From Myxococcota bacterium (GTDB lineage: Bacteria; Myxococcota_A; SURF-8; G963663525), in the NCBI GenBank assembly GCA_963676915.2, contig CAXXVK010000034.1:1-18187 (forward strand): 18,187 nt of DNA, written 5' to 3'. The translations under genes and the position numbers were made by a program. The notes beneath the pieces are model-generated. The model ran no database searches and was not told the DNA's origin. It saw only the letters and a program-made list of their open reading frames with translations. Of this stretch, positions 163 to 16,556 are shown one piece after another. The stretch's first letter is position 1. Every line of letters begins with the position of its first letter.

Positions 163-1320
163 GTGAGCGATATGGCAAACGTCGGAATGGATTCTTTCTT
201 GGTTCTAATTTCGATCGCTGTACTTCTAATTCTCGTTGTGGCGTATGTCGTGGCGAGGCACAACGCGAAAAAATCCAAGCAATTGGAGGAAGTTACGGAC
301 GATTCCTTTGTGGATGACAATCCTCGGTTCACCTCGGAAACGGTGATACAAGAAGAGAACTCCCAGGCATTGAAGTCCATGGGAAGCGAAGATGTTCGCG
401 AGATTCTAAGCGTAAACTTGAAAGCCTATCAAAAAGAAAACTCTACCGAATCGACGGATGAATATCTGCCCGACGAAAAAAGCGATTGGGTGGTGAGTTT
501 GGAGATTCGAAACGTTACGGAGATCGAACGGGAAGAAGTCCTGCGAATTTTCGATAGCGCCTGGCGCGAAGCCAATGGAACGCCGGAATTGTATGGAAAA
601 TCCGTTGAGACTGGAAAGTGGGCATTCCTGCTGGCGTCCGATGCCCCGGAAACGGTTTCCCAGGTACGATTTGCTTGGAAACTGTACCAGGATGAAGACC
701 AGGACCGCCCCAGCCTATGGACTCAAACCGATTTACGTTCGTTCCTCAATGCAACCAAAGTTGCTGGTGCGCAAATGGGGGATATCGTCATCGGTTCGAG
801 AACAACTCCCGAACAAGGTGGAGAACGTGCCGAATTTTTGAAAAACCTTGCCGAAGATTGCGATTGGACCGCCGGAATCGTTTTGAAAGCGGGAGAAGGA
901 AAAACCTTCCAAGGTAAAGATGTTTGGGACGTTATGATGAGTCTCGGTCTGCAATGGGGTGACATGGAAATTTTCCATTGGGTCAACGATAGCGGATTGG
1001 GAGACGACTCTTTCTTCAGCGTCTGGTCTTCGACCTCTCCCGGCTATTTTATTCGTGACCAGATCGAAGCCGGAGAGGTTCAGGTGGACGACCTCGTGTT
1101 CGGCTTCGCGATTCCTCGGTGCATCGATCCGGTACAAATCTACGATGCGATGCTCGAAGCCGCCCGCTATGCCAAAGAAAGGCTGGGGGGAGAGTTGCTG
1201 GATACCAACGGTGATACATTGCAGGATGAGGCTCTGAAAAAGGAAATCGAAGAAGCGGTTCGGCAGCTCGATGAATCCGGGTATCCTCCGGGCAGCGATG
1301 CATCTTTGTACGTTTTTTGA
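163..1320 (+). CDS. Membrane-anchored protein with a C-terminal ZipA FtsZ-binding-like domain
   Basis: N-terminal TM helix (FLVLISIAVLLILVVAYVV) followed by basic residues and an acidic linker. The C-terminal LGLQWGDMEIFH...FFSV...PGYF...FAIP...MLEAARYAKERLGGELLD resembles the ZipA_C pattern (GFIFGDMNIYH...LFSL...PGTF...MLQSAQHIADEVGGVVLD). The start could be GTG163, ATG172 or ATG187. Confidence 0.75.
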   Translation: MSDMANVGMDSFLVLISIAVLLILVVAYVVARHNAKKSKQLEEVTDDSFVDDNPRFTSETVIQEENSQALKSMGSEDVREILSVNLKAYQKENSTESTDEYLPDEKSDWVVSLEIRNVTEIEREEVLRIFDSAWREANGTPELYGKSVETGKWAFLLASDAPETVSQVRFAWKLYQDEDQDRPSLWTQTDLRSFLNATKVAGAQMGDIVIGSRTTPEQGGERAEFLKNLAEDCDWTAGIVLKAGEGKTFQGKDVWDVMMSLGLQWGDMEIFHWVNDSGLGDDSFFSVWSSTSPGYFIRDQIEAGEVQVDDLVFGFAIPRCIDPVQIYDAMLEAARYAKERLGGELLDTNGDTLQDEALKKEIEEAVRQLDESGYPPGSDASLYVF

Positions 1321-1432: not shown

Positions 1433-4400
1433 ATGACTTTTCGGAATTGGGTATGGATTCCTGTCCTGTTGGTATGTCTTGGAATGCCTGGATGGAGTCA
1501 GGCGGACGACTCCTTGCAACTCGAATCCATTCGGCAGGCGATTCAGCGGCAAGGTGCAACCTGGGAGGCGGCGGAGACGTCGTTTTCTCGACTGACACCC
1601 GCCGAGAGACTCCGGCACATGGGATGGAATCCTCCTGAAAATCTCAGGAAAAACAAACGGTTCGAACCGGCTTCGGTTTATCCTTTGCCTAGAAAGCTTG
1701 ACTGGCGCGATCATGGCGGCAACTGGGTCACTCCCGTTCAACAGCAGGGAGCGTGCGGAAGTTGCTGGGCTTTTGCGTCGATTGCCGCCATCGAGTCGGC
1801 CTTGCTGCTCAGTGAAGGCAAAACCTACGACGAATGGCCGATCGATCTCTCGGAAGGACAGGCGTTTGCCTGTGCCCCCGCTTCCGTGAGTTGCGAAACG
1901 GGAGGCAATGCAGAGTACACCTACAATATAGGGATGGACGACGGCATCACGGTAGAGGAATGCCTCGACTACGACAGCTATCTCGTGCTTGGCTCCAAAA
2001 ACGATATTGCCTGCGAATACGAATGTGACGACTGGCAGGATAGGGTCTATAAACTGCGTGGATACGCCTATGTCACAACGGGAGATTACCACTACCCCGA
2101 GGATATCGAGCGCGTCAAAGCGGCTTTGCAATATGGTCCCGTGGTGGCTGGTTTGGCGATTTTTTCCGACTTCAGCTACTACTCGGGCGGTATTTATCGA
2201 CACGTCTGGGGAGAATACGAGGCCGGACATCTGGTATTGCTCGTAGGATATGATAGCGACGAAGGATATTGGATTGCAAAAAACAGTTGGGGTGGATTCT
2301 GGGGAGAAGAAGGCGGTTATTTTCGTGTGGCTTTCGATGATGCGGCGACGAACATCATGCGTTGGGTGTCGATGCCTTTTGTCGAGGGCGACGAGCCGCC
2401 CGGTAGTTCCTGCAACAACCCCATAGAGCTCGATTTCGACGATGATGGCGTCGCCGAGCGCTTTTTCGATAGCGGACACACCTCTTTCGGTAGCGCTATC
2501 AACGGTTCCTGTGGCGGCTACGGCAAGCAAGTGGTGCTTCGTTTCGATGTCGACCAGGCTTCCGCTTTCACGGCTACGTTGGACGGCTCGGACGCCGTGC
2601 TGTACCTGCGTGAACAATGCGACGACGAACAAAGCGAGCTTGCCTGCGATAGCGGCAGCACGTCCTATCCCGGTATCGGGGATTGCTATATTACCGTCGA
2701 AAACCTCGATCCCGGCACGTATTTCCTGTTTGCCGATTCCAGCCACACGGACGCTGGCGAGTGGTTTCACCTGCAAGCGGAATTGCATCCCAAACGCGGA
2801 CTGCTGCACGTGGAGCCTTCGAGTGTAACGGTTTACGCCAAACAAGATCGTTCGATTTTGTGGTTCGATCCGGCTCAAGAACTTCTCTTATCCAATCTCG
2901 GAACGAAGACGATCGACTACGAAACGTCGGTGGAAGGGGAGGGCATTTCCCTGGAAGGTACCACCTCGGGGAGCCTCGATCCTGTCGTGTCCATCGAGGA
3001 CGGCTCCTCCGTTCTTCTTCAGGCTGCGGACCCGATTCAACCGGTCACGCCCGAGGTGATCGTGCGTTCCGAAGGCGTACCCGGAGCACCGGCCACGGTT
3101 GCGGTGGATGTCCGAACGTTTCCATATGGCATGGAATCTTTCCTCGAAAACCCGCAGCGGCTCCCTCGTCTAGGCAATTCACCGTACACGATGACATTGA
3201 CCAGCGAGGTGGAAGGCTCGGTGTACGATGTTTCGTTGTGTCTCAAGGTGCAAGGCGGAGAAATGGGTACTTTTTCCGCTACGTTGGAAACACCCGCCGG
3301 GCGGAAGCTCGAACTGTTCGAGAACAATCCCCGTGACCGCAGAGCGGTAGGCCCGATGATCTGTTTCGGCCCGGATAATCCTCCTTTCGAAGACCTTAAC
3401 GCCCTTGTGGGTGATGAAGCATTGGGAGATTGGACGTTTCATCTCAACTCGGACAACTGGGCCGAATTTGAGGGAGCGGCTTTGTTTTTCGCCACGATGC
3501 CGTGTGACGTTTCCCACTGCGACGACGGCAACGCCTGTACCGCAGATATCTGCCTGGAGGGCGAAGTCTGCGATTACCGCAACATGAAATTCGGTCTTCC
3601 GTGCGTAGACGATCTCTATTGCACGGTATACGAACACTGCGACGAGGGTCAGTGCGTGGGAGCCGAGCGGGAACCGACCTTCGATTTCCCGGATTGCGGT
3701 GTGCCCGACTGCAACGAAGAGGAACAAAAAGTCACTATCGAACCGATGGACGACCGTTGCGACGATGCCAACGTTTGCAACGGTGAAGAAACCTGCAATT
3801 TACTGTTGGGTTGCATGGCGGGTGAACCGCTCGAACTGGACGACGGAATCGACTGCACCAACGATGGTTGCGATGAAATCGACGGCGTATTTCACGAGCC
3901 GGACGACAGCCTTTGTCCCGAAGCTACGGATGAATGCCACGAGCCGTATTGTGACGCGCAAAAAGGGTGTTCCGTTTCATTCAAAGAGCAAGCGGCCTGC
4001 ACCATGACGACTGGCGCAGACGGCATTTGCGACGAGGACGCCTGTATCGCCATTCAGACCGGAAGCTTTTGCACGGATGCCGTTGTGCTCGAACCGGGAG
4101 AACATGGATTTTCTTTTTCCGAATTGAAGCAGTATGACACCGCCGGGTCCAAATGTGTGTCGGAAAACGAAACGCCTGGAAAACGCATGTATTTCCGGCC
4201 TTCTACAACTCCCGTTGACGTGACGCTTTCTTCGACCGGTGGAAAACTGCTGGCGCTTTCTTCCTGTAGCGGCGATTGCCTGGACCTCGTGACGAACGAC
4301 GATGCAGGCCAGACGCTACGATTCGATAATCCTGAGTCGGTATTGGCTGTTGTGAATATCGGGGATTCCGCAACCGAAAGTTTTACACTGACGATCCGAA

Positions 4401-4510
4401 AAATTTCCTCCTCCAGTGGTTGCCGTGCGGTTGGTAACTCCCAAGGCTGGATCGGCGTTTTTCTGATGCTTTGGCTTGTGGGATCTAGAAAACGTTTTGG
4501 GCTAAGGTAA
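1433..4510 (+). CDS. Secreted/surface C1A (papain-family) cysteine peptidase with accessory domains (P-domain-like, Cys-rich repeats) and a MYXO-CTERM-like tail
   Basis: Signal peptide. Catalytic motifs QGACGSCWAF (Cys), GHLVLLVGY (His) and YWIAKNSWG (Asn). A proprotein-convertase P-like segment (TLETPAG...LVGDEALGDWTF). Repeats CDDGNACTADIC, CVDDLYCTVYEHC, CDDANVCNGEETC and LDDGIDCTNDGC. C-terminus SSSSGC + hydrophobic helix + RKR. Confidence 0.9.
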   Translation: MTFRNWVWIPVLLVCLGMPGWSQADDSLQLESIRQAIQRQGATWEAAETSFSRLTPAERLRHMGWNPPENLRKNKRFEPASVYPLPRKLDWRDHGGNWVTPVQQQGACGSCWAFASIAAIESALLLSEGKTYDEWPIDLSEGQAFACAPASVSCETGGNAEYTYNIGMDDGITVEECLDYDSYLVLGSKNDIACEYECDDWQDRVYKLRGYAYVTTGDYHYPEDIERVKAALQYGPVVAGLAIFSDFSYYSGGIYRHVWGEYEAGHLVLLVGYDSDEGYWIAKNSWGGFWGEEGGYFRVAFDDAATNIMRWVSMPFVEGDEPPGSSCNNPIELDFDDDGVAERFFDSGHTSFGSAINGSCGGYGKQVVLRFDVDQASAFTATLDGSDAVLYLREQCDDEQSELACDSGSTSYPGIGDCYITVENLDPGTYFLFADSSHTDAGEWFHLQAELHPKRGLLHVEPSSVTVYAKQDRSILWFDPAQELLLSNLGTKTIDYETSVEGEGISLEGTTSGSLDPVVSIEDGSSVLLQAADPIQPVTPEVIVRSEGVPGAPATVAVDVRTFPYGMESFLENPQRLPRLGNSPYTMTLTSEVEGSVYDVSLCLKVQGGEMGTFSATLETPAGRKLELFENNPRDRRAVGPMICFGPDNPPFEDLNALVGDEALGDWTFHLNSDNWAEFEGAALFFATMPCDVSHCDDGNACTADICLEGEVCDYRNMKFGLPCVDDLYCTVYEHCDEGQCVGAEREPTFDFPDCGVPDCNEEEQKVTIEPMDDRCDDANVCNGEETCNLLLGCMAGEPLELDDGIDCTNDGCDEIDGVFHEPDDSLCPEATDECHEPYCDAQKGCSVSFKEQAACTMTTGADGICDEDACIAIQTGSFCTDAVVLEPGEHGFSFSELKQYDTAGSKCVSENETPGKRMYFRPSTTPVDVTLSSTGGKLLALSSCSGDCLDLVTNDDAGQTLRFDNPESVLAVVNIGDSATESFTLTIRKISSSSGCRAVGNSQGWIGVFLMLWLVGSRKRFGLR

Positions 4511-4523
4511 AAGAACTCGCCAA

Positions 4524-4566
4524 AAATTCTGGAGCGATAACGCTGGATTTCGTGTGGTGAGCAAGT
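4524..4566 (-). repeat. 43-bp diverged copy of internal comM sequence (matches 6847-6889)
   Basis: 39/43 identical to 6847-6889. All four differences fall at third codon positions, so both copies encode [14 protein letters not shown]. Confidence 0.9.
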
Positions 4567-4732
4567 TGTTCGACCTGTAACAATAATGTTTCCTAAAGCC
4601 CCCCTTATATTTCTCTTGACACGTTGTGAAATACTATGATCTCTTATCATCACACACTTTATGCTGGATCTGGAAGAGAAGGGTGAGTTTGATCCTTCCT
4701 GATACCACGGATATTATTGATAAGGAGGCATT

Positions 4733-5086
4733 ATGCAAGAAGTTGCCAGGAAGTCTGAAAATGAGAAATATTGCAGTGAATGTGGTGCAGTAATCTTAAA
4801 AAAAGCTGAAATATGTCCAAAGTGTGGAGTCAGACAAATGGCAATCCCTAACGGAATGGGAGGAGCCGTCGCAGATAACGGAAAAAGTCGTATCGCGGCG
4901 GCATTGCTTGCATTCTTCTTAGGAGGATTTGGGGTTCATAAATTCTACCTTGGCCAGGTCGGACTTGGTGTTGTTTACTTAATATTTTGCTGGACATTCA
5001 TACCAGCTATTATTGCATTCATAGACTTTATAATACTATTGACAATGAGTGATGATACTTTCAATCAAAAATATGGAAGCGCCTAA
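4733..5086 (+). CDS. TM2 (NINE)-domain membrane protein with N-terminal zinc ribbon
   Basis: Strong RBS TAAGGAGG (4721-4728). CSEC...CPKC zinc ribbon. TM2 signature KSRIAAALLAFFLGGFGVHKFYLG followed by a second TM helix. Confidence 0.9.
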   Translation: MQEVARKSENEKYCSECGAVILKKAEICPKCGVRQMAIPNGMGGAVADNGKSRIAAALLAFFLGGFGVHKFYLGQVGLGVVYLIFCWTFIPAIIAFIDFIILLTMSDDTFNQKYGSA

Positions 5087-5205
5087 TAATTCTATTTTTA
5101 CAAAGAACAGCAAGGTTGGGTAAGAAGTCCTGTAGCATGAACGTTGGGTTCTGGTGAAGAATCATTCAACCTAGTCCCACTTTCCAGCCCAGACAGCCAT
5201 CCCAT

Positions 5206-5235
5206 AAAAAACAGGTGCCTACGAAAACTCGTAAG
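5206..5235 (-). terminator. Possible intrinsic terminator downstream of the tRNA fragment
   Basis: On the minus strand, CUUACGA-GUUU-UCGUAGG forms a 7-bp stem (one G-U pair), with U6 six nucleotides later. Confidence 0.3.
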
Positions 5236-5244
5236 TGCTTGATT
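5232..5244 (-). promoter_or_regulatory. IHF-binding consensus next to the tRNA-derived att core
   Basis: Minus strand AATCAAGCACTTA matches WATCAANNNNTTR exactly, 4 bp beyond the CCA end. A weaker same-orientation match (TTTCAAGCCATTT) lies at 5357-5369. Confidence 0.55.
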
Positions 5245-5248
5245 TTAT

Positions 5249-5308
5249 TGGTGCCGAAGGGGGGACTCGAACCCCCACACCCAAATACGGGCACTAGACC
5301 CTGAATCT
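5249..5308 (-). tRNA. 3' fragment (60 nt) of tRNA-Leu(CAG); truncated and att-like, not a complete gene
   Basis: Minus strand reads AGA-TTCAGGG-TCTAG (anticodon CAG), long variable arm GCCC-GTATTT-GGGT, T-arm GGGGG-TTCGAGT-CCCCC, acceptor 3' strand CTTCGGC-A-CCA. The upstream sequence has no D-arm and no GCCGAAG 5' acceptor strand. Confidence 0.85.
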
Positions 5309-5463
5309 TTATAGAGGATATATTGGAGATTCAATACGAATCCCAATGTTTTCAGGAAATGGCTTGAAATTTCACTATATTTTCATCTTTGGGGAGCTTT
5401 TTATATATGACGTTGCCAATATCTATTTCCCCATGGGAAGAGATTCGTCGTGCAGCTTGATGC

Positions 5464-5588
5464 ACCATGGAGCGGGTGATCTTTGATGGGTGGCACAGAA
5501 TTTCGAGCACTTTTTCTTGAATTCCGGCAACTCGTTCAGGAAAAGCACGTCGTTATTAGCAAGGCTGATTTCTCCCAACTTCGGGATC
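5464..5588 (-). pseudogene. comM: Degenerate internal comM fragment (matches 6978-7118, Walker B region)
   Basis: 5464-5480 is identical to 6978-6994 (17/17). A 14-bp deletion follows. 5481-5520 vs 7009-7050 is 37/42 with two 1-bp gaps, and 5521-5588 vs 7051-7118 is 59/68. It encodes IPKLGEISLANNDVLFLNELPEFKK versus [25 protein letters not shown]. Confidence 0.9.
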
Positions 5589-5611
5589 ATTGGTGAATAT
5601 CCAGCTCGAAC

Positions 5612-6430
5612 TCACCCGAAATTCCTTGGAAAATCCGTGGTTTCCACGACACCTCGTTCCTTAATCGACAGTCCAACGGTTTTTCGTCCCGTGCCGAAGC
5701 CACGTTCTGCTTTTACGATGGTGAAGGTGTCGGTTATCGGCTGCATTCCCAGTCGAAAACGTCCCCCGCGTCCGCCACGTTGTGAGCCGTCCGGACGTGT
5801 TGACAGCGAAACGAGCGCTGTTCCTGTTCTTCGGGCACAATCGAGCAATGGAGAAATCGCCGCTGACCTGTCGTTAGAGGTGTTCAGCGATGCAAGGGGA
5901 GTGGCGTAGCGGGAATCGGTCAATACATTTGGTGCGAAAACTACGGCATCCACGCCACCCGAGGTGAGAAGCCGTTCCAGGGACGCCGCGAGGGTTTCGG
6001 GATGGGAAGCACGAAGCATAACGGTGCGTCGGGCGTCGAGTCCATGCAACGATAGCAAACGGCTTGGAAATGCGCTTTCGGGATCGATCCAAGCCACGGT
6101 AGCGCCTTCCTGCTGACTGTGCCGTATCAGGCTCATCACGAAAACGGCCCGACCGCTGCCTTCGGTTCCGATGATTTCCAACAGGTCGCCACGCGGCAGA
6201 CCATCCAGTCCCAACATGCGAAAAACATTGGGGAATCCAGCGGGGATCTGACAAGACAAAGGCGGAGTGCCTTGAGGGGATTCTTCTTTACGCTCCAATT
6301 CGTTCAGGGAACGTTGAAGATCCTGCATGGCCATCGTGAGGGCCATGCGAAAATCGTCGGCGACTCGTTGAAGCACGGTGCGTCCGGGGGATTGAGTGAG
6401 AATGTCCGATTTCTGATTTCGTGCAATCAT
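5612..6430 (-). CDS. RecA-superfamily paralogue (ImuA-like), probably ATPase-deficient and lacking the RecA C-terminal domain
   Basis: Collinear with the RecA core: LGLDGLPRGDLLEIIGTEGSGRA (RecA GGLPxGRIVEIYGPESSGKT), QQEGATVAWIDPE (QREGKTCAFIDAE), LLTSGGVDAVVFAP (LARSGAVDVIVVDS). 272 aa; starts 21 bp after the comM stop. Confidence 0.8.
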   Translation of the reverse strand: MIARNQKSDILTQSPGRTVLQRVADDFRMALTMAMQDLQRSLNELERKEESPQGTPPLSCQIPAGFPNVFRMLGLDGLPRGDLLEIIGTEGSGRAVFVMSLIRHSQQEGATVAWIDPESAFPSRLLSLHGLDARRTVMLRASHPETLAASLERLLTSGGVDAVVFAPNVLTDSRYATPLASLNTSNDRSAAISPLLDCARRTGTALVSLSTRPDGSQRGGRGGRFRLGMQPITDTFTIVKAERGFGTGRKTVGLSIKERGVVETTDFPRNFG

Positions 6431-6451
6431 GTCGTTCTCTTCAAAAATGAA

Positions 6452-7978
6452 TTAGCTCATGGTTCGGTCCAGACTGCGGTATTGGATCGCTTCCGACAGG
6501 TGGGCCGTCTGGATCGACTCGCTTGCGTCGAGATCCGCAATGGTTCGAGCCACTTTCAGAATCCGGTCGTAGGCTCGTGCGCTCATGCCGAGGCGATCCA
6601 CGACCATTTCGAGCAGCCGACCACCCTCGTCGTCTACTTTGCAGTCGCGCCGAAGCAGGGGCGGAGTCATCTGAGCGTTGCAGAAAAGATGATCGGAGCC
6701 GAGTCGTTCGAGTTGCAAGCGACGCGCAGCCACCACGCGATCCCGAATCGTTTCGGAGGTTTCTCCCCGGCGTTTGTCGCTCAAGTCACGATAGCGCACG
6801 GCGGGAACTTCCACATGCAGGTCGATGCGATCCATCAACGGACCGGAAATTCTGGAGCGATAGCGCTGGATTTCGTGCGGGGAGCAGGTGCATTCATGAT
6901 TGGGGTCTCCAAGAAAGCCACACGGACAAGGATTCATTGCGGCAACAAGCATGATGCGAGACGGGTAGGTGACCGATACCATGGAGCGGGTGATGGTCAC
7001 CTGCCGGTCTTCGATGGGTTGGCGCAGAACTTCGAGCACATTTTTCTTGAATTCAGGTAACTCGTCCAGGAAAAGCACGCCGTTATGGGCAAGGCTGATT
7101 TCTCCAGGCTTCGGGATCGATCCGCCCCCGATCAGTCCCACATCCGAAATCGTGTGGTGCGGCGCTCGAAACGGCCTTTGTGTCATGATGCCCTGGCCGT
7201 TTTTCAGTAATCCCGCAACGGAATAAATCTTGGTGGTTTGCAAAGCTTCTTCGAAACTGGGAGGTGGAAGTACCCCGGCGATTCTGCGTGCAACCATCGT
7301 TTTGCCCGACCCGGGCGGACCTACGAGAATCAAATTGTGTCCACCGGCAGCAGCGACCTCCAGAGCGCGCTTGACGTGCTCCTGTCCTTTGACATCCGAC
7401 AAGCAGGGCCAACCGCCGGGCGGTGGTATGTCGTCTTTGTGGGGAAGTTCCACCGGTGGGATAGGATTTTGACCCAGCAGGAAGCCCACGGCCTGATCCA
7501 CAGTTCGTACGGGAATAACCTCGATACCTTCGACGACGGCGGCTTCCTCGACGTTTTCTTCCGGTAGCAGGATGCCGTCCATTCCGGCATCCCGACACGC
7601 GACGGCGATGGACAGCGCGCCTCGAACGGGACGGATCGTGCCGTCCAAGGCGAGTTCTCCCGAGACCATGTAGTGATTGAGTTGGGGAAAGTCCAGGTTT
7701 CCCGACGATGCCAAAATACCGAGTGCAATGGGCAGATCGAAGGCTGCGCCTTCTTTGCGGATATCGGCAGGCGCGAGGTTGATGGTAATACGTCGTGGTG
7801 GAATGGCGAAGCCGGTATTGCGTAATGCCGACCGTACGCGCTCTTTCGATTCTCGGACCGCACCATCGGGAAGGCCGACGATCTGCACGCCGGGCAATCC
7901 CAAAGAAAGGTCCACCTCGACTCGAACCTGATAGGCATCGATTCCCAGTACCGCACCGGATTGAACACAGGACAACAT
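6452..7978 (-). CDS. comM: ComM / YifB Mg-chelatase-like AAA+ ATPase
   Basis: Start reassigned to ATG 7978 (RBS AAGGAGG at 7984-7990), giving 508 aa. Motifs: [35 protein letters not shown], Walker [69 protein letters not shown]. Confidence 0.95.
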
Positions 7979-8045
7979 GGGCACCTCCTTGGCTGCGTAA
8001 TTACAGCAAGGCTTGTGCCAATCGGTGAAAGTCCCGATAGCCCGC

Positions 8046-8205
8046 ATATTTCATGAGGATCGTCACGAGACGCCGAAAACCGAAGATATTTCATGAAGTT
8101 GGAGCGATTTTCACCCGCAGGCATACTGAACAGTCTGTCGAGGATGAAAATCGGGAAACAAGTGAAAGATCAAGGGGTTTCAAGTCGCAGTAGATTCTTC
8201 ATGAA
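8046..8205. promoter_or_regulatory. Repeated TTCATGA(A) motifs upstream of comM (candidate operator sites)
   Basis: ATATTTCATGA at 8046-8056 and 8086-8096 (exactly 40 bp apart) and TTCATGAA at 8198-8205. Confidence 0.35.
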
Positions 8206-8336: not shown

Positions 8337-10646
8337 CTACGGAAGCCTTCGCCGTTTGCGCCACCACCACTCACTTGCGGCAAGCAGTACGATCAATCCC
8401 AGCATGAAGGCGTTGTCCCAGATCGGAATGTCCTGTTTCGCACCGATTCTTTCGTTATGGCGGCCTTCAAAATCTATCGGATCGCTTAAACGGTCGGGAA
8501 GAGGTTCGAAGTGCCCTCCCGATGCATCGGCGAGGCGCTCCAATTGCCGGAAATCCACTGAAACTTCATCCAATTCCCGACTTTTACCTTCGATGAAAAC
8601 CATTGCTTCGCCGTGTTGCTCGCTGCCGTCTTCCAGACGATGAACGAGACGGATTTCGAGCAATCCTTCTTTTTGCGGAGCGGGTAGCGTGGTGCGGATG
8701 ATGCCGTCTTCGTCGCTGGTTTTCTCTTCTTCAAACACGATGTCGGATTCCCCCTGGAACCGTGCTTCGATTTTCGCTGTGGCTCCGGATTTGGGCTGGA
8801 ATCCCGTGTCCGTGATCCGAAAAGAGACATTGACATTTTCGCCGGGTTGATAGCTGTCCTTGGCGGGAGTGGCTTGGATGTGCGTCAGTTCGGGATCTTT
8901 GATCAACCAGCGCAGGGCATTGTTCCAGAAGGTGCGGTAGTGTTCGGCCCGTTTTCCCTGACCGACGGACTGAAAATTCCAAACCCAGGTGGAATCGACG
9001 GCCAACGCCAGTACACGCCCTTTCTCCGGTTCTCGCAACGCAATCACCGGAGGAGATCCGAACGCTCCGCTCAAGCGAGGATGCACCGCCAAAACCACAG
9101 CGTCGGGACGAGGTTTCAGTCCGAGGTTGATTCCCATCAGATTCGGCAATGAATTCCATACTTTGCGATTGGCGTCCAGGTCTTTGACCAGCCGTGTGAC
9201 GGGATGTTGCTCTCCTTTGGGTGTCAGACGAGCAGGAAACGGTTCCAAGCTCGCCGCGTTGCCGCCTTCCTCGATCGTAAACGGTAAAATCGCCTCGATA
9301 GCGGTACGTTGATAGCCGCCCAATCCGTAAGAAACATCTCCACCGATGACCAGCAGCGAGCCGCCTTGTTCGACGTAGCGGCGAATGTTGGGTAGGTACT
9401 GGGACATCCGGTAGCCGACGTAGGTAAAATTCTGGAAAATCACCAGGTCGAAGGTGTGCAGTTGTTTGTCGAACAGTTCTTCGGTTGGGAAGGGAATCAA
9501 CGAAAGCTCGTGATCCTGACTCATTACGGAATCTTCAGGCGTACGCAAGATGAAAAAGCTGATGAGATCCACGCTGGGATTTCGTTTCAGATGGCGTCGC
9601 AGGAACATTTCATCGTAATCGGGATGTCCGCAGACATGAAGAATGCGGATTTTGTCGCGGATCACCTGAACGATGAATTTTCTGCTGTCGTTCTCGGGGA
9701 TGGCGTCTTCGGGAGGCGTATCGATGTGGGCTTCATATACGAATTGTCCGACTTTCTCCGGTGCGAACGTGAAACGGGCCACTTGCCGTTCCCCCTCGGC
9801 GACATGCACGGTTTTCGCTTGGATGGGCGAACCGTTCAAAGATAACGTCGCAGTGACATCCCTTGCAGGGTAGCCGGTATTGCCGATTTCTATTTCGACC
9901 GCCATTTCGTTGTGAACGAAGGCGAATCCGTCGTATCGAACGTCACGGATCGCAAGATCGGCCAGACCTTTTTCGACACCGACTCCGTAGGCCACAATGG
10001 GCAAACGTCGCTTTTTCAGCAAGGTCAATAGGGCTTCTTCATCGGTTTCAGCATGTTCCGGTGGGTTGTCCACACCGTCCGAGATGACGACGATACCGGC
10101 CAGTTCCTCGGAAGGATAGCCTTCCATCGTACTTTGGATGGAGGAAAGCAGAGTTGTGTAGTCGTCTCTGGAGTTCAGAGGCTCGGACAACGTATCGAGG
10201 CTGACGCTTGACGTTTTGGCTCCGAAAGTCATCGGGTGTAAGTGATGTCGTTCCGCCAATTCAGAGAACGCTTCACGACTATTGGAGAAAAACTCGGTCA
10301 TTTGTGCCGAGCGACTTGGCTTACCGGGAGCGGAGGGAAGGTTCATCGAGCGTGAACGATCGGCCAGAACGACGACATGAGATTTAAATTTGAGGCGTTT
10401 CTGCAATTGAGCGGCTGGTTCGAGCCATAGCAGCACCAACAGCACGATCAATAAAATGCGCAGGATAAACAACGACCAGCGGATTTTTTTGACCTGAATC
10501 CGGGAAAGATTGCTCCAGGAAAGCCACACGGCGATAAGAATTCCAACGCCGAAAAGCATCCATTCCCAAGGTCGAGGATGGTGCAGGAATACCCATTCCC
10601 AGTAATTGTAATCTCCCAAAGCGGAAGGATCGAACAGGTTGCCCAC
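8337..10646 (-). CDS. Membrane protein with VWA (MIDAS) and class-I glutamine amidotransferase-like (DUF1355-type) domains
   Basis: Two N-terminal TM helices; MIDAS VLADRSRS...T...VISDG; Ig-like segment; FDLVIFQN...IRRYVEQGGSLLVIGGDVSYGLGGYQRTAIEAILP; GRVLALAVDSTWVW; C-terminal TM ending SEWWWRKRRRL. RBS GAGGAGG before the GTG. Confidence 0.85.
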   Translation of the reverse strand: MGNLFDPSALGDYNYWEWVFLHHPRPWEWMLFGVGILIAVWLSWSNLSRIQVKKIRWSLFILRILLIVLLVLLWLEPAAQLQKRLKFKSHVVVLADRSRSMNLPSAPGKPSRSAQMTEFFSNSREAFSELAERHHLHPMTFGAKTSSVSLDTLSEPLNSRDDYTTLLSSIQSTMEGYPSEELAGIVVISDGVDNPPEHAETDEEALLTLLKKRRLPIVAYGVGVEKGLADLAIRDVRYDGFAFVHNEMAVEIEIGNTGYPARDVTATLSLNGSPIQAKTVHVAEGERQVARFTFAPEKVGQFVYEAHIDTPPEDAIPENDSRKFIVQVIRDKIRILHVCGHPDYDEMFLRRHLKRNPSVDLISFFILRTPEDSVMSQDHELSLIPFPTEELFDKQLHTFDLVIFQNFTYVGYRMSQYLPNIRRYVEQGGSLLVIGGDVSYGLGGYQRTAIEAILPFTIEEGGNAASLEPFPARLTPKGEQHPVTRLVKDLDANRKVWNSLPNLMGINLGLKPRPDAVVLAVHPRLSGAFGSPPVIALREPEKGRVLALAVDSTWVWNFQSVGQGKRAEHYRTFWNNALRWLIKDPELTHIQATPAKDSYQPGENVNVSFRITDTGFQPKSGATAKIEARFQGESDIVFEEEKTSDEDGIIRTTLPAPQKEGLLEIRLVHRLEDGSEQHGEAMVFIEGKSRELDEVSVDFRQLERLADASGGHFEPLPDRLSDPIDFEGRHNERIGAKQDIPIWDNAFMLGLIVLLAASEWWWRKRRRLP

Positions 10647-10649
10647 GGA

Positions 10650-11471
10650 TCAATCCTCCTCGCCGACCGGTTGCGAACCCCTGAAAGGAGAACGACGCCG
10701 CTTGAGAATGAAGGGAATATGCACCTGATCGGATTTGTAATTGGTGCACAGAGCATACATGATGACGTTGACTCCGAAGCGGAACGCCAATTCCCGTTGA
10801 TGATCGCCACCGGGATAGACCGGAAGGCTCCAGTTGCCGAATTGATCCCTCATCCAAGCGCCACCGAGGTCGTTTCGGGAATAAATGACCGGAGTCCGTT
10901 CGTCGATGTGGATTCCTTCTACGTAGGGAAGCCGCTCGCGTCGTCCTGGGCGACCGTCGATCAAATAGAACGACTTGAACAACGTATGGTCGTGATCGAT
11001 ACGTTCGAAGGGGTTTTTCGGGAAAATACGCCCGAATTCTCTGCGAATCGCTGTATCGAAGCCATCGTCTTCACCGAAATCGTCGATGAATAAAAAACCT
11101 CCCAAACGCAAAAAACGGTGCAATTTCAGGATGTGGGCTTCGCTGAAGGGTGCGAAGTCGGTGTTTCCGTTCAAATACAACACCGGATAATAGAATAAAT
11201 CTTCGTGATCCAATGTGATTTCGGGGCTGTCCAAGTTCGCTTCGATGCTTGTTCGGCGAAGCAGTTCCCACGCAAGACGGCTTTGAGCCCCTCTACGTTC
11301 GGTGCTTGCTCCCAGGTACATCAGTGAGGGGAATGAAAATTTGGAGCGCACACCAAAACCCCAAGCCGGTTTGGAAACAAAGGGGAACGCCAATCCCAAC
11401 AGAGGTAGTCCGGTGAGAAAACGACGCCTGGAGAAGCGATTTCCTTCGGATGTCGGCTTGTTGGGAGTCAT
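10650..11471 (-). CDS. DUF4159-family protein with Tat-like signal
   Basis: Start reassigned to ATG 11471, followed by SRRRFL + hydrophobic stretch + AWG. DLFYYPVLYLNG, LHRFLRLGGFLFIDD, IYSRNDLGGAW and AFRFGVNVIMYALCTNYKSDQVH are typical of DUF4159. Confidence 0.85.
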   Translation of the reverse strand: MTPNKPTSEGNRFSRRRFLTGLPLLGLAFPFVSKPAWGFGVRSKFSFPSLMYLGASTERRGAQSRLAWELLRRTSIEANLDSPEITLDHEDLFYYPVLYLNGNTDFAPFSEAHILKLHRFLRLGGFLFIDDFGEDDGFDTAIRREFGRIFPKNPFERIDHDHTLFKSFYLIDGRPGRRERLPYVEGIHIDERTPVIYSRNDLGGAWMRDQFGNWSLPVYPGGDHQRELAFRFGVNVIMYALCTNYKSDQVHIPFILKRRRSPFRGSQPVGEED

Positions 11472-11547
11472 GAAGTGTTCGATTCTATTGCAAAAGGGAG
11501 AACGTCTTTGAGAGACGACATGTTGATAAAAGAATCCTCTTTTGAGG

Positions 11548-12307
11548 TCAAGGAGTTTCGTTTGTCTTCGCTGGGGGGGCACCTGTCGATTCTGTTTTTC
11601 CACGAATCTTTTTCAACGTTCGTACCGCGTTGAGTTGTATTCCCCTGTTGAATGTGATTTTCGGTGTTGCCCAGGGACCGTCAAGGCGAAGCTCGTGCAT
11701 TGGTTTCGAAGACGGATCGAACGCTTCGACCGGCCAGCCTTTGACAAGAAGAAGTGTGTAATTTTCGTGGTGTTTCCAGGGTTTTAGATCATTTTGAACC
11801 TGTTTGAACGCCCAAAACAACGCTTTTCGCTGGGCTGTTTCACTGGCTTCCGGGTCCAACCATAAGTCGATTTCGACAACGGCTTCCTTTTCGTCTTCCC
11901 GTTGGCGGACATCGATGGTCTTGCAGGTTTGCTCGGGGGGGAGGTCTTTCCATTCCAGGTTGCGTTTGATGGTCTGGCTTTTTTTCGTCCCGGCGGATTG
12001 AATAATCGGCTTGCGTTGCCCTTTCAACGTTCGATTCAAAAACGAGAGTCGGCTGTTTTCAGACAGGGCATCGAAACGTTTTTTTTTGCGTTTCGTCGGC
12101 GAATGCCAGCCGGTATCCACGGATGTCAGAATAACTTGTGGGTTGTTCTGGGGTTCCGGCAACGGGGCGACCGCTGAGCGGACAGACTTTGTTTCCTAGT
12201 GTCTTGACCGGGACACTGGTTTCGGGAGTTGCTTTTTCCGAACAAGAGAAAACGCATAGAACAGCGAAAAGTAACAAAACCGGAAAAGCGATATGGGTGA
12301 ATTTCAT
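11548..12307 (-). CDS. Putative lipoprotein with YHS/TRASH-like motif, split by a +1 frameshift in an A9 tract
   Basis: ATG 12307 gives MKFTHIAFPVLLLFAVLCVFSC (lipobox-like), then NKVCPLSGRPV...RGYRLAFADE. Removing one T from the T9 run at 12079-12087 joins it in frame to the 11548-12162 ORF (...DETQKKRFDALSEN...), giving 252 aa. Confidence 0.6.
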
Positions 12308-12433
12308 CCTATTGTCCTTTTTTCTCGTCACTTTTCGTTACTATCGCGAAAAATGGTGAAAAAATCCACCCCCCAACAATGAAATGATCGACTTTTCAGG
12401 CTTTCTTTTCAAAATTGTCGAATCGAAAGGAGT

Positions 12434-15298
12434 TTACTTTTCTTTAGAGACGGTTTTGTTGACCTGTTCAACCAGTTCTTGAGAGGAAAAAGGTTTTTGA
12501 AGAAAACCGGATATGGTTTTGCCTTGGAAACGTTCCAATACAATGTTTCGGTTGTAGCCGCTGGTCAAAAGAATGGGAATCTTGCACCCAAGGTGTCGCA
12601 ATTCCTCAAGAGCTTGTTCACCTCCCATTTTCGGCATGGTTAGGTCTAGAATGATTAAATCGATGTTTTCCTTGTGTTTCTGGTATTTGGCAATAGCTTC
12701 GAAGCCGTTCGATGCGGTAAATATCTCCATGCCGTTTCGTGAAAGAGTTCTTTCCATCATGCGTCGTACGACGGATTCGTCATCGGCGATAAGAACGGTA
12801 TGCGTCGTGACGGTCGAGTATTTTGATTCCGGTATTTCCAACTCTTTGCTGCCGGATTCCATTACGGGGAAAAACGCTGTGAAAACAGAACCTTTTCCGA
12901 GACTGCTGTCCACGGTGATCGTACCGCTGTGACCCCTGATGATACCGATAACCGTGGCTAAGCCCAAACCTCGTCCGGTAAACTTCGTCGAGAAAAAGGG
13001 ATCGAAAATTCGCGAAAGGGTTGCCGGGTCCATGCCTGCCCCGGAATCTGAAACTTTGACAAAGGCATAGGAGCCTTCAGGAAGATCCTCGTCGATCAAT
13101 GTCGCGGATAAAAAGTCCCGGTCACAGTGTTTTTCACCTGTTTCAATGATAATTTCGCCGTTTCGTCTGCCAACGGCTTCTACTGCATTGGTTACGAGGT
13201 TTAGCACCAATTGTTGAAATTGTACGGAATCGGCTTCGATGAACGTGTTCATTTCATGAAGGCGATACGACAACGTGGTGCCCAGGTTCATTGTGGCGTT
13301 GATGATGTGCCGCATGCTGTTGATGGTTTCAGTTACATGCAGCGGAGCTTTGATAACGCGCCCTTTTCCGGAATACGCCAGCATCTGCATGGCCAGTTCC
13401 GAAGCTTGAAACGCAGAATGTTCTACGTCTTTAAGGAAATCGTAAATTGGTGATTCCGGGTTGAGATCCATCAGGGCGAGACTGACATTACCCATGATTC
13501 CGGTTAGTAGGTTATTGAAGTCGTGGGCAACGCCTCCGGCCATATGTCGGAGACTTTCGAGTTTTTGGTTTTCCTGAATTCGGAAATCCTTTTGTTTGAG
13601 AAGAGGGTCCGTTTTTCGACGGGACGAGATGTTTCTGGATACACCCAGCAAGCCAATGTTTTCGCCATCTTCGTTTTGTAAAAGTGTAATGATGGTTTCG
13701 GTTGTGACGTGGTTTCCGTTTTTGTGAATGAAATCCAATTCCATTCTCAAAGAGTTGTCCTGCTTTTCATTCAGGTTGGATGAAACCAGTGCTTCAGGAA
13801 TCCATTTCATTGCTTTTTCAAGGCTGGATTCGGTCATTCTGTCGTGGAGTTGAAGACCGATGGCTTCTTCCGGCTTGAATCCACAGAGAGTCTCGACCGA
13901 TGGACTGACGTACGTCAGTGAAAACGTCATGTCGGTCATCCAGATCATGTCCGTGATGTTATCCGCAATAAAGCGGTATTTTTGTTCGCTCTGGTCCATG
14001 TCGTGCTCCACCCCAAGGGTTGTTCCATTTGTTCCTGTGGAAAACAAAACACCCGAAGGTTCGCCATGTTTGTCGAAGACGGGGGATCGAGTTACGCTCA
14101 ACTGCCGTTTTTCCAAGTCACAGGTCATTTCTTCTTCATCTTGCAATGCGGTTCGCTGGTAGATTGCTTTAAGGTCTTTTTCCTGGTGGCGTTGAGCTTC
14201 TTCCTCGTCGAACAGATCGAAATCCGTCTTGCCTAAAATGTCAGTTTCGTCAAGATTCACGAGACGACAAAAAGCTGGATTGGCGATTTCGTATTGCAAC
14301 TCTTTGTTTTTGTAAGCAAAAGGAAGAGGCGTTGATAAAAGCCATGCTTCGAATAATTCATGATGAGGATGGCGCGAAGACAACGTTTTGTCAGCGGAAC
14401 TTCCGGTTTCGGTGTAACAAACCACGATGTGGGTTTCATCCGCTTTTTCGGCGATGCATCGAAGGGTTTTTCCTATCAACGGAGAATATTCTTCAAAGCG
14501 ATAGGGCTCGGAAAGGTCAAGAGCCATAAAAAAATGAGCGAACCACGAAGGATGAGCGACACGGGATACCAATTGACCGAGATAGGTTTGTTCGTCCAGT
14601 TCCGTAATTTGTTTCGAGCCTTTATTCGTGCCGACCAGGCGGAAGTCCAAAGGTTTCTTTCGGCGATCGTATAGAATTTCGAACATGGCGAACCCCAAAA
14701 GACCGTCTTCCGCCATTTTTTCCATATACGGTTTCAACAATCGCGATACTTTACGGTTGTCTATCTCGATTCTTGGAGCAATTGGTTCTTCGAATGGCTG
14801 CGGCGAATGAGGGGCAGGATAGTTTGAAACGATGGAATCTCTTAGTATTTCCAGTGTTTTACGATGGAACTGACCGATTAGTTCGAGGTTTTCATCTTTT
14901 AATTCCGGAAGGGAGGCATTCCATTCTTCCTCGAAAATTTCTTGGCCGAAAAGAGCTGCACCTTTTTCGTTGGAGGTCGTATTGTCTCGGTCCCACTGAA
15001 GAGTGAAAGGTCCGATGACAATGGTTCCTTCATTAGGTCCATCCAGGGGGACAGGCAAGTGAAGATCACGCAAGCCGTTGCTACGTTGAAACGCCTGAAA
15101 ACCACTAAGATTGATACGTTTAAAAGGTAACTGAAGATGAGCCTGAGCATGAAGAACATTCAGGCCGGAAGCGCTGACAAGTTCCCCATTCGTTCCAAGC
15201 AAAAGTACTGGAACGTTGATCATGGCCGAAAACCGCTTACAATACCGTTGCAGGGTTTCCAAAACAGAAGGTTCGGATTGTGGAACCGGTAGTTTCAT
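12434..15298 (-). CDS. Cytoplasmic hybrid sensor histidine kinase (PocR-like, PAS x2-3, HisKA, HATPase, REC)
   Basis: H-box AGGVAHDFNNLL, N-box QLVLNLVTNAVEA, G1 DSGAGM, F-box IFDPFFSTK, G2 GRGLGL. Receiver VLIADDE...ILDLTMP...TSGY...QKPF. PAS signatures ANPAFCRL...ILGKTDFDLF and YVSPSVETLCGF. Start at ATG 15298 or TTG 15325. Confidence 0.92.
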   Translation of the reverse strand: MKLPVPQSEPSVLETLQRYCKRFSAMINVPVLLLGTNGELVSASGLNVLHAQAHLQLPFKRINLSGFQAFQRSNGLRDLHLPVPLDGPNEGTIVIGPFTLQWDRDNTTSNEKGAALFGQEIFEEEWNASLPELKDENLELIGQFHRKTLEILRDSIVSNYPAPHSPQPFEEPIAPRIEIDNRKVSRLLKPYMEKMAEDGLLGFAMFEILYDRRKKPLDFRLVGTNKGSKQITELDEQTYLGQLVSRVAHPSWFAHFFMALDLSEPYRFEEYSPLIGKTLRCIAEKADETHIVVCYTETGSSADKTLSSRHPHHELFEAWLLSTPLPFAYKNKELQYEIANPAFCRLVNLDETDILGKTDFDLFDEEEAQRHQEKDLKAIYQRTALQDEEEMTCDLEKRQLSVTRSPVFDKHGEPSGVLFSTGTNGTTLGVEHDMDQSEQKYRFIADNITDMIWMTDMTFSLTYVSPSVETLCGFKPEEAIGLQLHDRMTESSLEKAMKWIPEALVSSNLNEKQDNSLRMELDFIHKNGNHVTTETIITLLQNEDGENIGLLGVSRNISSRRKTDPLLKQKDFRIQENQKLESLRHMAGGVAHDFNNLLTGIMGNVSLALMDLNPESPIYDFLKDVEHSAFQASELAMQMLAYSGKGRVIKAPLHVTETINSMRHIINATMNLGTTLSYRLHEMNTFIEADSVQFQQLVLNLVTNAVEAVGRRNGEIIIETGEKHCDRDFLSATLIDEDLPEGSYAFVKVSDSGAGMDPATLSRIFDPFFSTKFTGRGLGLATVIGIIRGHSGTITVDSSLGKGSVFTAFFPVMESGSKELEIPESKYSTVTTHTVLIADDESVVRRMMERTLSRNGMEIFTASNGFEAIAKYQKHKENIDLIILDLTMPKMGGEQALEELRHLGCKIPILLTSGYNRNIVLERFQGKTISGFLQKPFSSQELVEQVNKTVSKEK

Positions 15299-15566
15299 GA
15301 TCCTACAGTCCAAACAAGTATTCAAACAAGGTTCGAGAATCTTTCCTCAGTAAAGAGGAAAAGTGGATATCCAAATACTGAATGGATTACATTGTATTAC
15401 ACCATTTGCTTTTTTGCAACTAATGATGGCTAATCGCACGTTGGTCACTTGCATTATTAAGGCATCTTTATATAACCGAGAGCTGTACAATTTGCAACTG
15501 CTTTGCGATGAGAATATGCTGATTTTCAGGAAAACGAAAACCAACAGGTACAAGTGGAACTAAAGT

Positions 15567-16385
15567 ATGAATATCGTTAGACAATGGAAGTATGCAGATA
15601 TTGAGGCTGTTGAATTGGGGTTTAGTCCTATCGGGTCGCCCCTAATGACAGTGTGTTTGTACCGATACCGTGGAACTCTGATAGATTCGGGACAAAGTAG
15701 GATGCGTTCGACCGTCCTTGAATGGATCAGGACAAACCCTGTAAACACAATCTTACTGACCCATCATCATGAAGATCATTCGGGAAACGCCGCAGAGATT
15801 GCACGACGATACGGAGCGGAAATCCTTGCGCATCCTCTCACATTGGAAAAAATGTCCGGTCCCAACCGGATTCTTCCCTACCAGAAGTGGGTTTGGGGGC
15901 CGTCGAGTCCCATAAGTGGCTATGCTTTTGCCGATGAAATCGAAACCGATGGTCTGTGTTTGATTCCAATTCATACGCCGGGACACAGCAAGGATCACTG
16001 CGTTTTTCTCGTGCCCGACAAAGGCTGGTTGTTTTCCGGAGATTTATACTTGGGTGATCGAATCAAATACTTTCGTTCGGACGAATGCATTGGAGAGCAG
16101 ATCGCTTCGATCAGGGACGTCCTGACCTTCGATTTCGATGTATTGCTATGTTCGCATCATCCTCGTTTGAAAAACGGAAAACGTCATTTGAAACGCAAAT
16201 TGCAGTTTTTGGAAGATTTTTGCGGGAATGTGCATCGTTTGAAAGGAGAAGGGAAACCTTTGCGGGTGGTTGCTCGTGAACTTGAAATCAAAGAAACTTG
16301 GCTGGTGCGAGGGATTACATTAGGAAACGTCAGTATGCGTAACATGATTGTTTCAGCGTGGGAAACCTGTGGGGATTTCAAGTAA
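15567..16385 (+). CDS. MBL-fold metallo-hydrolase
   Basis: LIDSG, THHHEDHSG (HxHxDH), HTPGHS, LFSGD, LCSHH. Confidence 0.9.
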   Translation: MNIVRQWKYADIEAVELGFSPIGSPLMTVCLYRYRGTLIDSGQSRMRSTVLEWIRTNPVNTILLTHHHEDHSGNAAEIARRYGAEILAHPLTLEKMSGPNRILPYQKWVWGPSSPISGYAFADEIETDGLCLIPIHTPGHSKDHCVFLVPDKGWLFSGDLYLGDRIKYFRSDECIGEQIASIRDVLTFDFDVLLCSHHPRLKNGKRHLKRKLQFLEDFCGNVHRLKGEGKPLRVVARELEIKETWLVRGITLGNVSMRNMIVSAWETCGDFK

Positions 16386-16556
16386 ATTCCTCAATTTTAT
16401 TACATTTATACTGAACACTTTGTAGGATTGCGACATGTGTCTCCTTCAGGTATGGACCCATAAATGAATTTGCCACCATATTAAGAAAATGTTAAAGAGG
16501 GGATGTGGTCTTTTTCAGTGAAAACTGTTGCCTTTCCCATTGCAAGCGAGGTGAAC

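Follow-up and report, generated by a model that had tools for sequence, protein, structure and literature searches.

We analyzed an 18,187-nt stretch of DNA from a Myxococcota bacterium, called the window below and representing the entire contig CAXXVK010000034.1, with respect to its comM gene and to a fragmentary second copy of this gene, the ghost, which lies downstream of it. The comM copy at 6452–7978 (minus strand) is intact. It encodes a protein of 508 aa of the YifB family of Mg-chelatase-like AAA+ ATPases, is full length as judged from TIGR00368 (644.4 bits, cut-off 362.4), carries the Pfam domains ChlI, Mg_chelatase and Mg_chelatase_C and has its Walker B motif VLFLDE at residues 301–306. 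The nearest ComM relative in any collection searched is 69% identical, and the resident ComM forms a cluster with one member. A gene for a RecA-fold protein of 272 aa (5612–6430, minus strand; Pfam RecA, E 3.8e-11, residues 68–165) starts 21 nt past the comM stop codon and is the sole gene between comM and the ghost. On its other side the ghost is bounded by a gene for a papain-family peptidase of 1025 aa (Peptidase_C1; 1433–4510, plus strand), which is convergent with the comM strand.

The ghost consists of two fragments on the minus strand. Fragment B (5464–5588) is a copy of comM 6978–7118, that is codons 288–334 ending in ITRSM, and fragment A (4524–4566) is a copy of comM 6847–6889, codons 364–377. 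When 4400–5700 was compared with 6400–8100 by BLASTN the core of fragment B was aligned (5480–5588 with 7008–7118, 97 of 111 columns identical, E 4e-29), and a gapped local alignment extended the match past a 14-nt deletion (5464–5480 with 6978–6994, 17/17 identical). Overall, 113 of the 125 aligned bases of fragment B are identical, the copy being short of comM by 1, 1 and 14 nt. Fragment A matches at 39 of 43 positions (BLASTN, E 3e-10) and all four differences are synonymous. Taken together, 152 of 168 aligned bases are identical to comM, and the repeat search as well as BLASTN show both fragments in the orientation and order of comM, in the numbering of which they correspond to nt 861–1001 and nt 1090–1132 and are co-linear and non-overlapping. 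A first-pass annotation made from the sequence alone had given these matches, their orientation and their order exactly to the base. In a tblastn comparison of ComM with the comM-masked window only these two places were found (E 7.5e-8 and 1.3e-5; next E 1.6), and the same search detected no ghost of the 5′ part of comM. The reading frame of fragment B alone matches Pfam Mg_chelatase with an E value of 8e-6.

Between the fragments 88 nt of comM (6890–6977, coding for the AAMNPCPCG region) are absent, and an insert of 897 bp with a GC content of 40.8% (4567–5463) is found in their place, which confirms the earlier description of 88 bp replaced by about 897 bp of AT-rich DNA. Repeats, BLASTN and GC content also support the claim that a foreign islet splits the ghost downstream of an intact comM and the RecA-like gene. 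The edges of the insert resemble the missing 88 nt at chance level only (154 and 1273 of 2000 shuffles scored equally).

The ghost starts at nt 861 of comM, 43 nt ahead of the Walker B codons (nt 904–918), and stops at nt 1132 of 1527, short of the stop codon, so that nt 1133–1527 are missing. A displaced copy that reaches the stop codon and then passes into the original downstream flank is therefore not what is found here; possibly the missing 3′ end was removed by a later deletion. The upstream end of the ghost and the RecA-like stop codon are separated by 23 nt; at the other end, that of fragment A, the distance to the stop of the convergent peptidase gene is 13 nt. Because both ends come so close to live stop codons, they were probably set by deletional erosion limited by the live neighbour genes and not by an attachment (att) site. 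In that case the start at nt 861 need not mark a crossover or insertion point.

The ghost has accumulated two 1-nt deletions causing frameshifts, the 14-nt deletion, the 88-nt replacement and a truncation at both its 5′ and its 3′ end. Of its 16 substitutions, seven are synonymous, six are single-base non-synonymous changes and the remaining three make up a triple change (P291L). Residues P291, H298, G300, D305, V317, R319 and E323 are affected. Conservation was scored codon by codon on an alignment of ComM with its 59 best database homologues: all seven residues are conserved in 57–59 of the 59 homologues and the resident ComM retains the conserved state, and with D305N the ghost has lost the Walker B aspartate. 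All six single-base non-synonymous changes (6/6) replace a G/C of comM by an A/T in the ghost, the GC content of which is 47–48% compared to 54–56% in the matching stretches of comM. As these changes affect conserved sites and run from G/C to A/T, they arose on the ghost after selection had ended. With its significant similarity to comM and its disabling lesions the ghost is a dead, eroding comM pseudogene.

Two residues bear on its descent. I322 is common to the ghost and the resident ComM and is present in 4 of the 59 homologues and in none of the ten closest, and H368, also common to both, is likewise found in none of the ten closest homologues. These shared residues place the origin of the ghost in the lineage of the resident gene or in one very near to it. 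It has no present function. The only effect that it may have is that of a short direct repeat of 88–91% identity, across which rare recombination could remove the RecA-like gene and disrupt comM.

The insert in the ghost and the RecA-like gene

Compared to the comM, RecA-like and peptidase genes, which have 55–58% GC, the insert is of clearly different composition. It contains an intact gene for a zinc-ribbon/TM2 membrane protein of 117 aa (4733–5086, plus strand; Pfam TM2, E 2.6e-19) with a GC content of 33% at third codon positions and a good ribosome-binding site, AAGGAGG, upstream of its ATG. The protein has 3145 homologues at E≤1e-10; the 120 for which identities were listed stem from bacteria of widely different phyla and show 67–80% identity. 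PHROG families whose function is unassigned in PHROG are matched by the TM2 domain as well, and genes for TM2-domain or “NINE protein” products with 71–77% nucleotide identity are carried by enterobacterial plasmids, ranging from 2 to 105 kb among the matches shown. The TM2 protein is thus better conserved across phyla (67–80%) than the host's own ComM, the best relative of which reaches 69%, and this suggests frequent horizontal movement of the gene.

The insert in addition harbours the 3′ half of a tRNA-Leu(CAG) gene (5249–5308, minus strand), which the first-pass annotation had missed. In a BLASTN search of phage genomes it matched annotated phage tRNA-Leu genes (E 3e-6). Alignment to two of the phage tRNA-Leu genes showed that it spans the last three bases of the 5′ strand of the anticodon stem and the anticodon loop and continues through the long variable arm, the T arm, the 3′ strand of the acceptor stem and A73 to CCA; the 5′ half is absent. 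Rfam recognizes the T arm only (E 0.0067), and neither ARAGORN nor an Rfam scan of the whole window detected a complete tRNA. A terminator-like hairpin followed by a T run (5218–5235, minus strand) is found 13 nt past the CCA. This is a consensus match only and, with seven such sites found in the region where 4.4 are expected, weak evidence.

We scanned 14 open reading frames (ORFs) of the window and 16 six-frame ORFs within or overlapping the insert for protein domains. Besides the TM2 gene none of the insert ORFs had a Pfam match, and neither the 14 window ORFs nor the six-frame pieces of the insert contained an integrase, recombinase or transposase. Terminal inverted repeats, other terminal repeats and a target-site duplication were looked for at the edges of the insert without success. 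Elements that integrate into tRNA genes typically leave a 3′ tRNA half as their footprint; genomic islands and prophages of this type have such a half at their far end. The insert has this att-type 3′ part, from the anticodon stem to the CCA, whereas the intact partner tRNA and the integrase of such elements are not found in the window, and the half-tRNA is located inside a comM pseudogene and not beside a tRNA locus. A mobile-element ancestry of the insert is supported by its low GC content, the half tRNA-Leu gene and the relatives of the TM2 gene on plasmids and in PHROGs, and the half tRNA-Leu gene points to a tRNA-targeting and not to a comM-targeting element in this ancestry.

The product of the RecA-like gene matches the RecA core only, including RecA chains in the PDB, and has a degenerate P-loop, with GSGRA instead of GxxxxGK[ST]. 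Against the NCBIfam model for ImuA (NF033429) it scores 39.9 bits, the cut-off being 150. Look-alikes retrieved from the Atlas with a language model belong to MT3502_N/RecA_N clusters of proteins of about 250 aa (score 0.95), MT3502 being the mycobacterial ImuA′; Pfam MT3502_N itself gave no match to the protein at E≤0.001. No polymerase-like neighbour, imuB or dnaE2 was present among the window ORFs scanned. Given the score below the cut-off and the lack of imuB and dnaE2 nearby, we would describe the protein as RecA-fold and ImuA′-like, the likeness being based on the Atlas clusters and the degenerate P-loop, and do not assign it to the ImuA family.

An exhaustive HMMER scan of 1.84 billion representatives returned three close relatives. 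P0122 is 53–54% identical and retains the GSGR P-loop, so that the degenerate motif, GSGR(A/R) in place of GSGK(T/S), is a family trait; P0246 is 35% identical; and P0245 is a fragment of 97 aa with 87% identity over its first 70 residues and a frameshift-like divergence after about residue 63. P0245 comes from a close relative of the organism, yet no ComM of more than 69% identity was found among the proteins of 279–889 aa searched; in this relative comM may be disrupted or shortened, or may lie outside the contig. Only weak matches of the RecA/UvsX type were obtained with PADLOC and PHROGs and a single weak RecA match with plasmids. The RecA-like gene has a host-like GC content of 56%.

comM ghosts at other loci

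For comparison we used the comM loci of the best 80 of 580 confirmed relatives obtained with ComM as query (50–64% identity), the top ones belonging to Candidatus Poribacteria. Apart from domain-level matches to the histidine kinase, none of the 80 loci has a neighbour gene in common with the window, and in none of them does a RecA-like gene adjoin comM. Among the 30 loci of this set that were checked for tRNA genes beside comM one unrelated tRNA-Ser was detected. A search for extra ComM-like pieces by tblastn and self-BLASTN uncovered same-strand comM ghosts downstream of comM in three of the 80 loci (L035, L039 and L042).

In L039, from a metagenome-assembled genome (MAG) of a Crocinitomicaceae bacterium, comM is followed 72 nt downstream by a gene with an ORF6N domain and then by a copy of the last 173 nt of comM with 90.8% identity. 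In the last 156 nt of this ghost all nine differences (9/9) are synonymous third-position changes, the 51 encoded residues are identical and the homology stops at the stop codon. Synonymous-only differences together with a boundary at the stop codon are the signature of a replaced 3′ end; the sequence would accordingly represent two functional alleles and not a duplicate decaying in place. In L042, from an Omnitrophota MAG, comM is followed by an ORF6N gene 85 nt downstream, an HTH (helix–turn–helix) gene, a protein of 922 aa and 127 nt of comM. This ghost, which starts at about residue 351, shows 100% identity, lies at the end of the contig and may be recent or an assembly effect. The regions containing the ORF6N genes extend over 11606–12302 in L039 and 11619–16130 in L042. 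The two ORF6N proteins share 44% identity and are found in only these two of the 80 loci, both of which have ghosts. The 922-aa protein has no match in Pfam or NCBIfam, and the unknown proteins in the inserts of L035, L039 and L042 have none in NCBIfam.

In L035, from a Chloroflexota MAG, an intact comM is followed downstream by two diverged versions of its 3′ end, at 14124–14326 and 20848–21116 (77% and 66% identity), and both begin at the same comM position. The first comes after a protein of 739 aa that belongs to no known family, and the second is contained in an 82-aa ORF (Mg_chelatase_C, E 2e-12) and comes after guaA, rnhB and other housekeeping-type genes. In terms of comM nucleotides the ghosts start at 861 in the window, at about 1054 in L042, at 1311–1342 in L035 and at 1361 in L039. 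Elsewhere in L033 and L051 tblastn matches to the N-terminal domain were seen, and L034 gave a weak antisense BLASTN match.

Like the window, L039 and L042 have an intact comM, a small gene 72–85 nt downstream and a same-strand ghost of the comM 3′ part. Their cargo, however, is an ORF6N-domain gene and not a RecA-like gene, their ghosts start at other positions of comM, and the ghost of L039 is in frame with synonymous differences only, whereas that of the window is heavily decayed. The architecture of comM, small gene and 3′ ghost is thus shared with L039, where the differences and the boundary are those that an allelic replacement of the 3′ end predicts. That such ghosts recur beside a preserved comM in unrelated phyla is in our view the most useful lead from the analysis. 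Ghosts in three of 80 unrelated loci suggest that a survey of the region downstream of comM could reveal whether gene-preserving insertion is common.

Origin of the second copy

We consider it about an even call that the copy arose through displacement by incoming DNA with comM staying whole. The presence of ghosts in 3/80 loci and the signature seen in L039 make us slightly favour displacement over a tandem duplication. A DNA segment with the 3′ part of comM and the RecA-like gene would have recombined into comM, either carried by an integrative element whose recombinase was lost later or by way of one homologous crossover inside comM and one illegitimate join. comM would thereby have been kept whole and its old 3′ part pushed downstream, and later deletions would have trimmed the displaced piece to fit between two live genes. 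The remnant of a tRNA-Leu-targeting element would also have come to lie inside the displaced piece; the order of the trimming and insert events is not recoverable from the sequence. Further observations speak for displacement: the RecA-like gene, which is very rare, is next to comM in none of the 80 other loci, and no second RecA-like remnant is detectable in the window (best E 0.8), though duplication of the block predicts one. The supposition in the first-pass annotation that an element supplied a replacement 3′ half is plausible and has a good analogue in L039, although for the window itself it is not demonstrated.

A direct repeat of the target's 3′ part beside an intact target gene, as expected from an element that restores its target gene, is indeed present in the window; between the repeats there is only the RecA-like gene and no integrase or recombinase. 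The nearest formal analogue would be phage 21 and e14 at icd of Escherichia coli, where the incoming DNA supplies the 3′ part of the gene and the displaced 3′ pseudo-end of icd remains. In both cases the target gene is intact, and its former 3′ part is still found further downstream, with unchanged orientation, as a direct repeat undergoing decay. The window differs in that it has no integrase or other element gene, with one RecA-like gene between the repeats, that its repeat would have spanned 667 nt of coding sequence and that its ghost has lost its own 3′ end and was interrupted. Cis-mobilizable elements at fda of Streptococcus thermophilus, which are decayed, integrase-less and flanked by att repeats, likewise present a short cargo between direct repeats of a housekeeping gene's 3′ part and lack a recombinase of their own. 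The window, in contrast, has no definable att core, and no cognate full element is known for the lineage. A further formal parallel to 3′-end displacement is the orphan-forming replacement of the tips of rhs/cdiA toxin genes.

Several observations weigh against displacement. The window retains no recombinase, att core or terminal repeat, and the ghost starts across the loci give no evidence of a shared attachment site. Discordant phylogenies of the comM halves, which the first-pass annotation had named as support for gene replacement, did not materialize: both halves are closest to the same ten proteins, and in FastTree trees of the N part (aa 1–286) and the C part (aa 287–508) each is sister to P0004 in the same 11-member clade (support 0.97 and 0.99), a result without power against a donor as near as the ghost (88–91% nucleotide identity), given that the nearest relative of ComM is 69% identical. 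The ghost groups with the resident 3′ half through I322 and H368. By simple arithmetic, which is not a formal test, about three synonymous changes are expected from decay of the ghost and about as many from the resident copy, so that the substitution pattern is equally predicted by a local duplication. The lost 3′ end of the ghost precludes the boundary test at the stop codon which is possible for L039, the RecA-like gene is host-like in composition and the L042 ghost, being 100% identical and at a contig end, is possibly an assembly effect.

The copy may alternatively stem from a local tandem duplication, in which unequal crossover or replication slip doubled the 3′ part of comM plus the RecA-like gene, or the whole unit, and the second copy then lost all but 168 nt of comM and took up the foreign insert. 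We regard this as rather unlikely but as a competitor to be taken seriously. The lineage-specific residues common to both copies, the lack of discordance between the comM halves, a ratio of synonymous to non-synonymous changes that fits divergence from identical copies, the missing recombinase and the host-like GC content of the RecA-like gene all agree with it. It requires, however, that every trace of a second RecA-like gene was lost, since none was found; moreover the RecA-like gene, with 0/80 loci, is not a conserved neighbour of comM, and L039, the best-preserved analogue, fits replacement better.

An improbable sequence of events is that the element of which the insert is a remnant inactivated the ancestral comM and that an intact comM with the RecA-like gene was acquired upstream later, the ghost then being the downstream part of the disrupted gene. 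This would account for the position of the insert inside the ghost, where it replaces the conserved NPCPCG-coding stretch, and the L042 ghost starts at about residue 351, within the residues 334–363 replaced by the insert here. In addition, comM is a known target the loss of which affects transformation (PMC10293859). Yet the only att-like feature of the insert is the tRNA-Leu half and not a comM-derived site, no comM 5′ ghost was found in the masked window and the sequence does not reveal which event came first.

The statement that comM is a recurrent target of mobile elements is documented in three papers (PMC10293859, PMC11014353, PMC10322971). The TnsF proteins of Tn6022 and of the tyrosine-recombinase transposon Tsy recognize a stretch of 10 bp in the part of comM that codes for Walker B, and either element separates comM into a 5′ and a 3′ portion (PMC10293859). 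An insertion inside comM with a 5-bp duplication, ACCGC, is described in PMC11014353, and a table in PMC10322971 lists a 94.9-kb island at comM of Acidithiobacillus ferrooxidans which has an integrase, RitABC and a 14-bp repeat. With the Tn7-like Tn6022/AbaR elements and Tsy the window has in common the target gene and a ghost start 43 nt before the Walker B codons recognized by the selectors. But these elements split comM and produce a 5-bp duplication or none, whereas in the window comM is whole and 168 nt are duplicated. The 14 window ORFs contain no domains of a Tn6022/Tn7-like element, comM is intact and no terminal inverted repeats are found, and the combination expected for Tsy, a tyrosine recombinase, an HTH protein and an active TnsF between the comM portions, is not present in the window.

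That the two fragments are att scars of successive comM-targeting elements, as also proposed in the first-pass annotation, is very unlikely. The recurrent targeting of comM just cited would favour it, and fragment B includes the Walker B coding region recognized by TnsF-type selectors. The fragments are, however, pieces of one copy, co-linear and non-overlapping, whereas re-integration at one site gives scars with the same start, as in L035. Tn6022 and Tsy split comM and leave a duplication of ≤5 bp (PMC10293859, PMC11014353), and the window ORFs contain no tnsABC, tniQ, tnsF, tyrosine recombinase, integrase or transposase, nor is there a target duplication or an inverted repeat. An assembly artefact by which strain variants were joined into a chimeric metagenomic contig might be considered, as the window is the whole contig, but is hardly credible, because the copies differ by 9.5% plus indels, because changes of invariant residues including the Walker B Asp are unlike any co-occurring functional allele and because assembly errors yield exact repeats or abrupt joins and not a decayed, internally deleted fragment.

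Without a function of its own, the ghost is valuable as a record, showing that in this uncultured lineage extra DNA entered the comM locus on at least two occasions, once with the RecA-like gene and once with the TM2/half-tRNA insert, and left the competence helicase gene whole. In contrast, the comM-targeting transposons studied so far (Tn6022/AbaR and Tsy) disrupt comM, and in the open-access comM/yifB literature we found no paper describing a comM-restoring insertion. One may speculate further that comM hosts small recombinase-less cassettes, such as the RecA-like gene here and the ORF6N genes in the Flavobacteriales and Omnitrophota MAGs, which bring their own comM 3′ end and displace the resident one; we think this doubtful. 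If it were true, displaced ghosts would be a readable record of past acquisitions at comM.

Remaining genes of the window

The further genes of the window were assigned from their ORFs and Pfam matches. A gene for a ZipA_C protein (163–1320, plus strand) precedes the peptidase gene. In the peptidase the Peptidase_C1 match is confined to residues 85–312, and the C-terminal part is long, cysteine-rich and without a Pfam match and has a hydrophobic tail at its end. On the other side of comM there are a GATase1-like gene (8337–10646), a DUF4159 gene (10650–11603) and a gene for a hybrid histidine kinase (12434–15325), all on the minus strand, and a gene for a protein with a metallo-beta-lactamase fold (15567–16385, plus strand). 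The region of the latter two genes (12200–16600) has a GC content of 42–50% compared to 53–58% on the comM side, and the GC content of the window is therefore heterogeneous beyond the insert, too.

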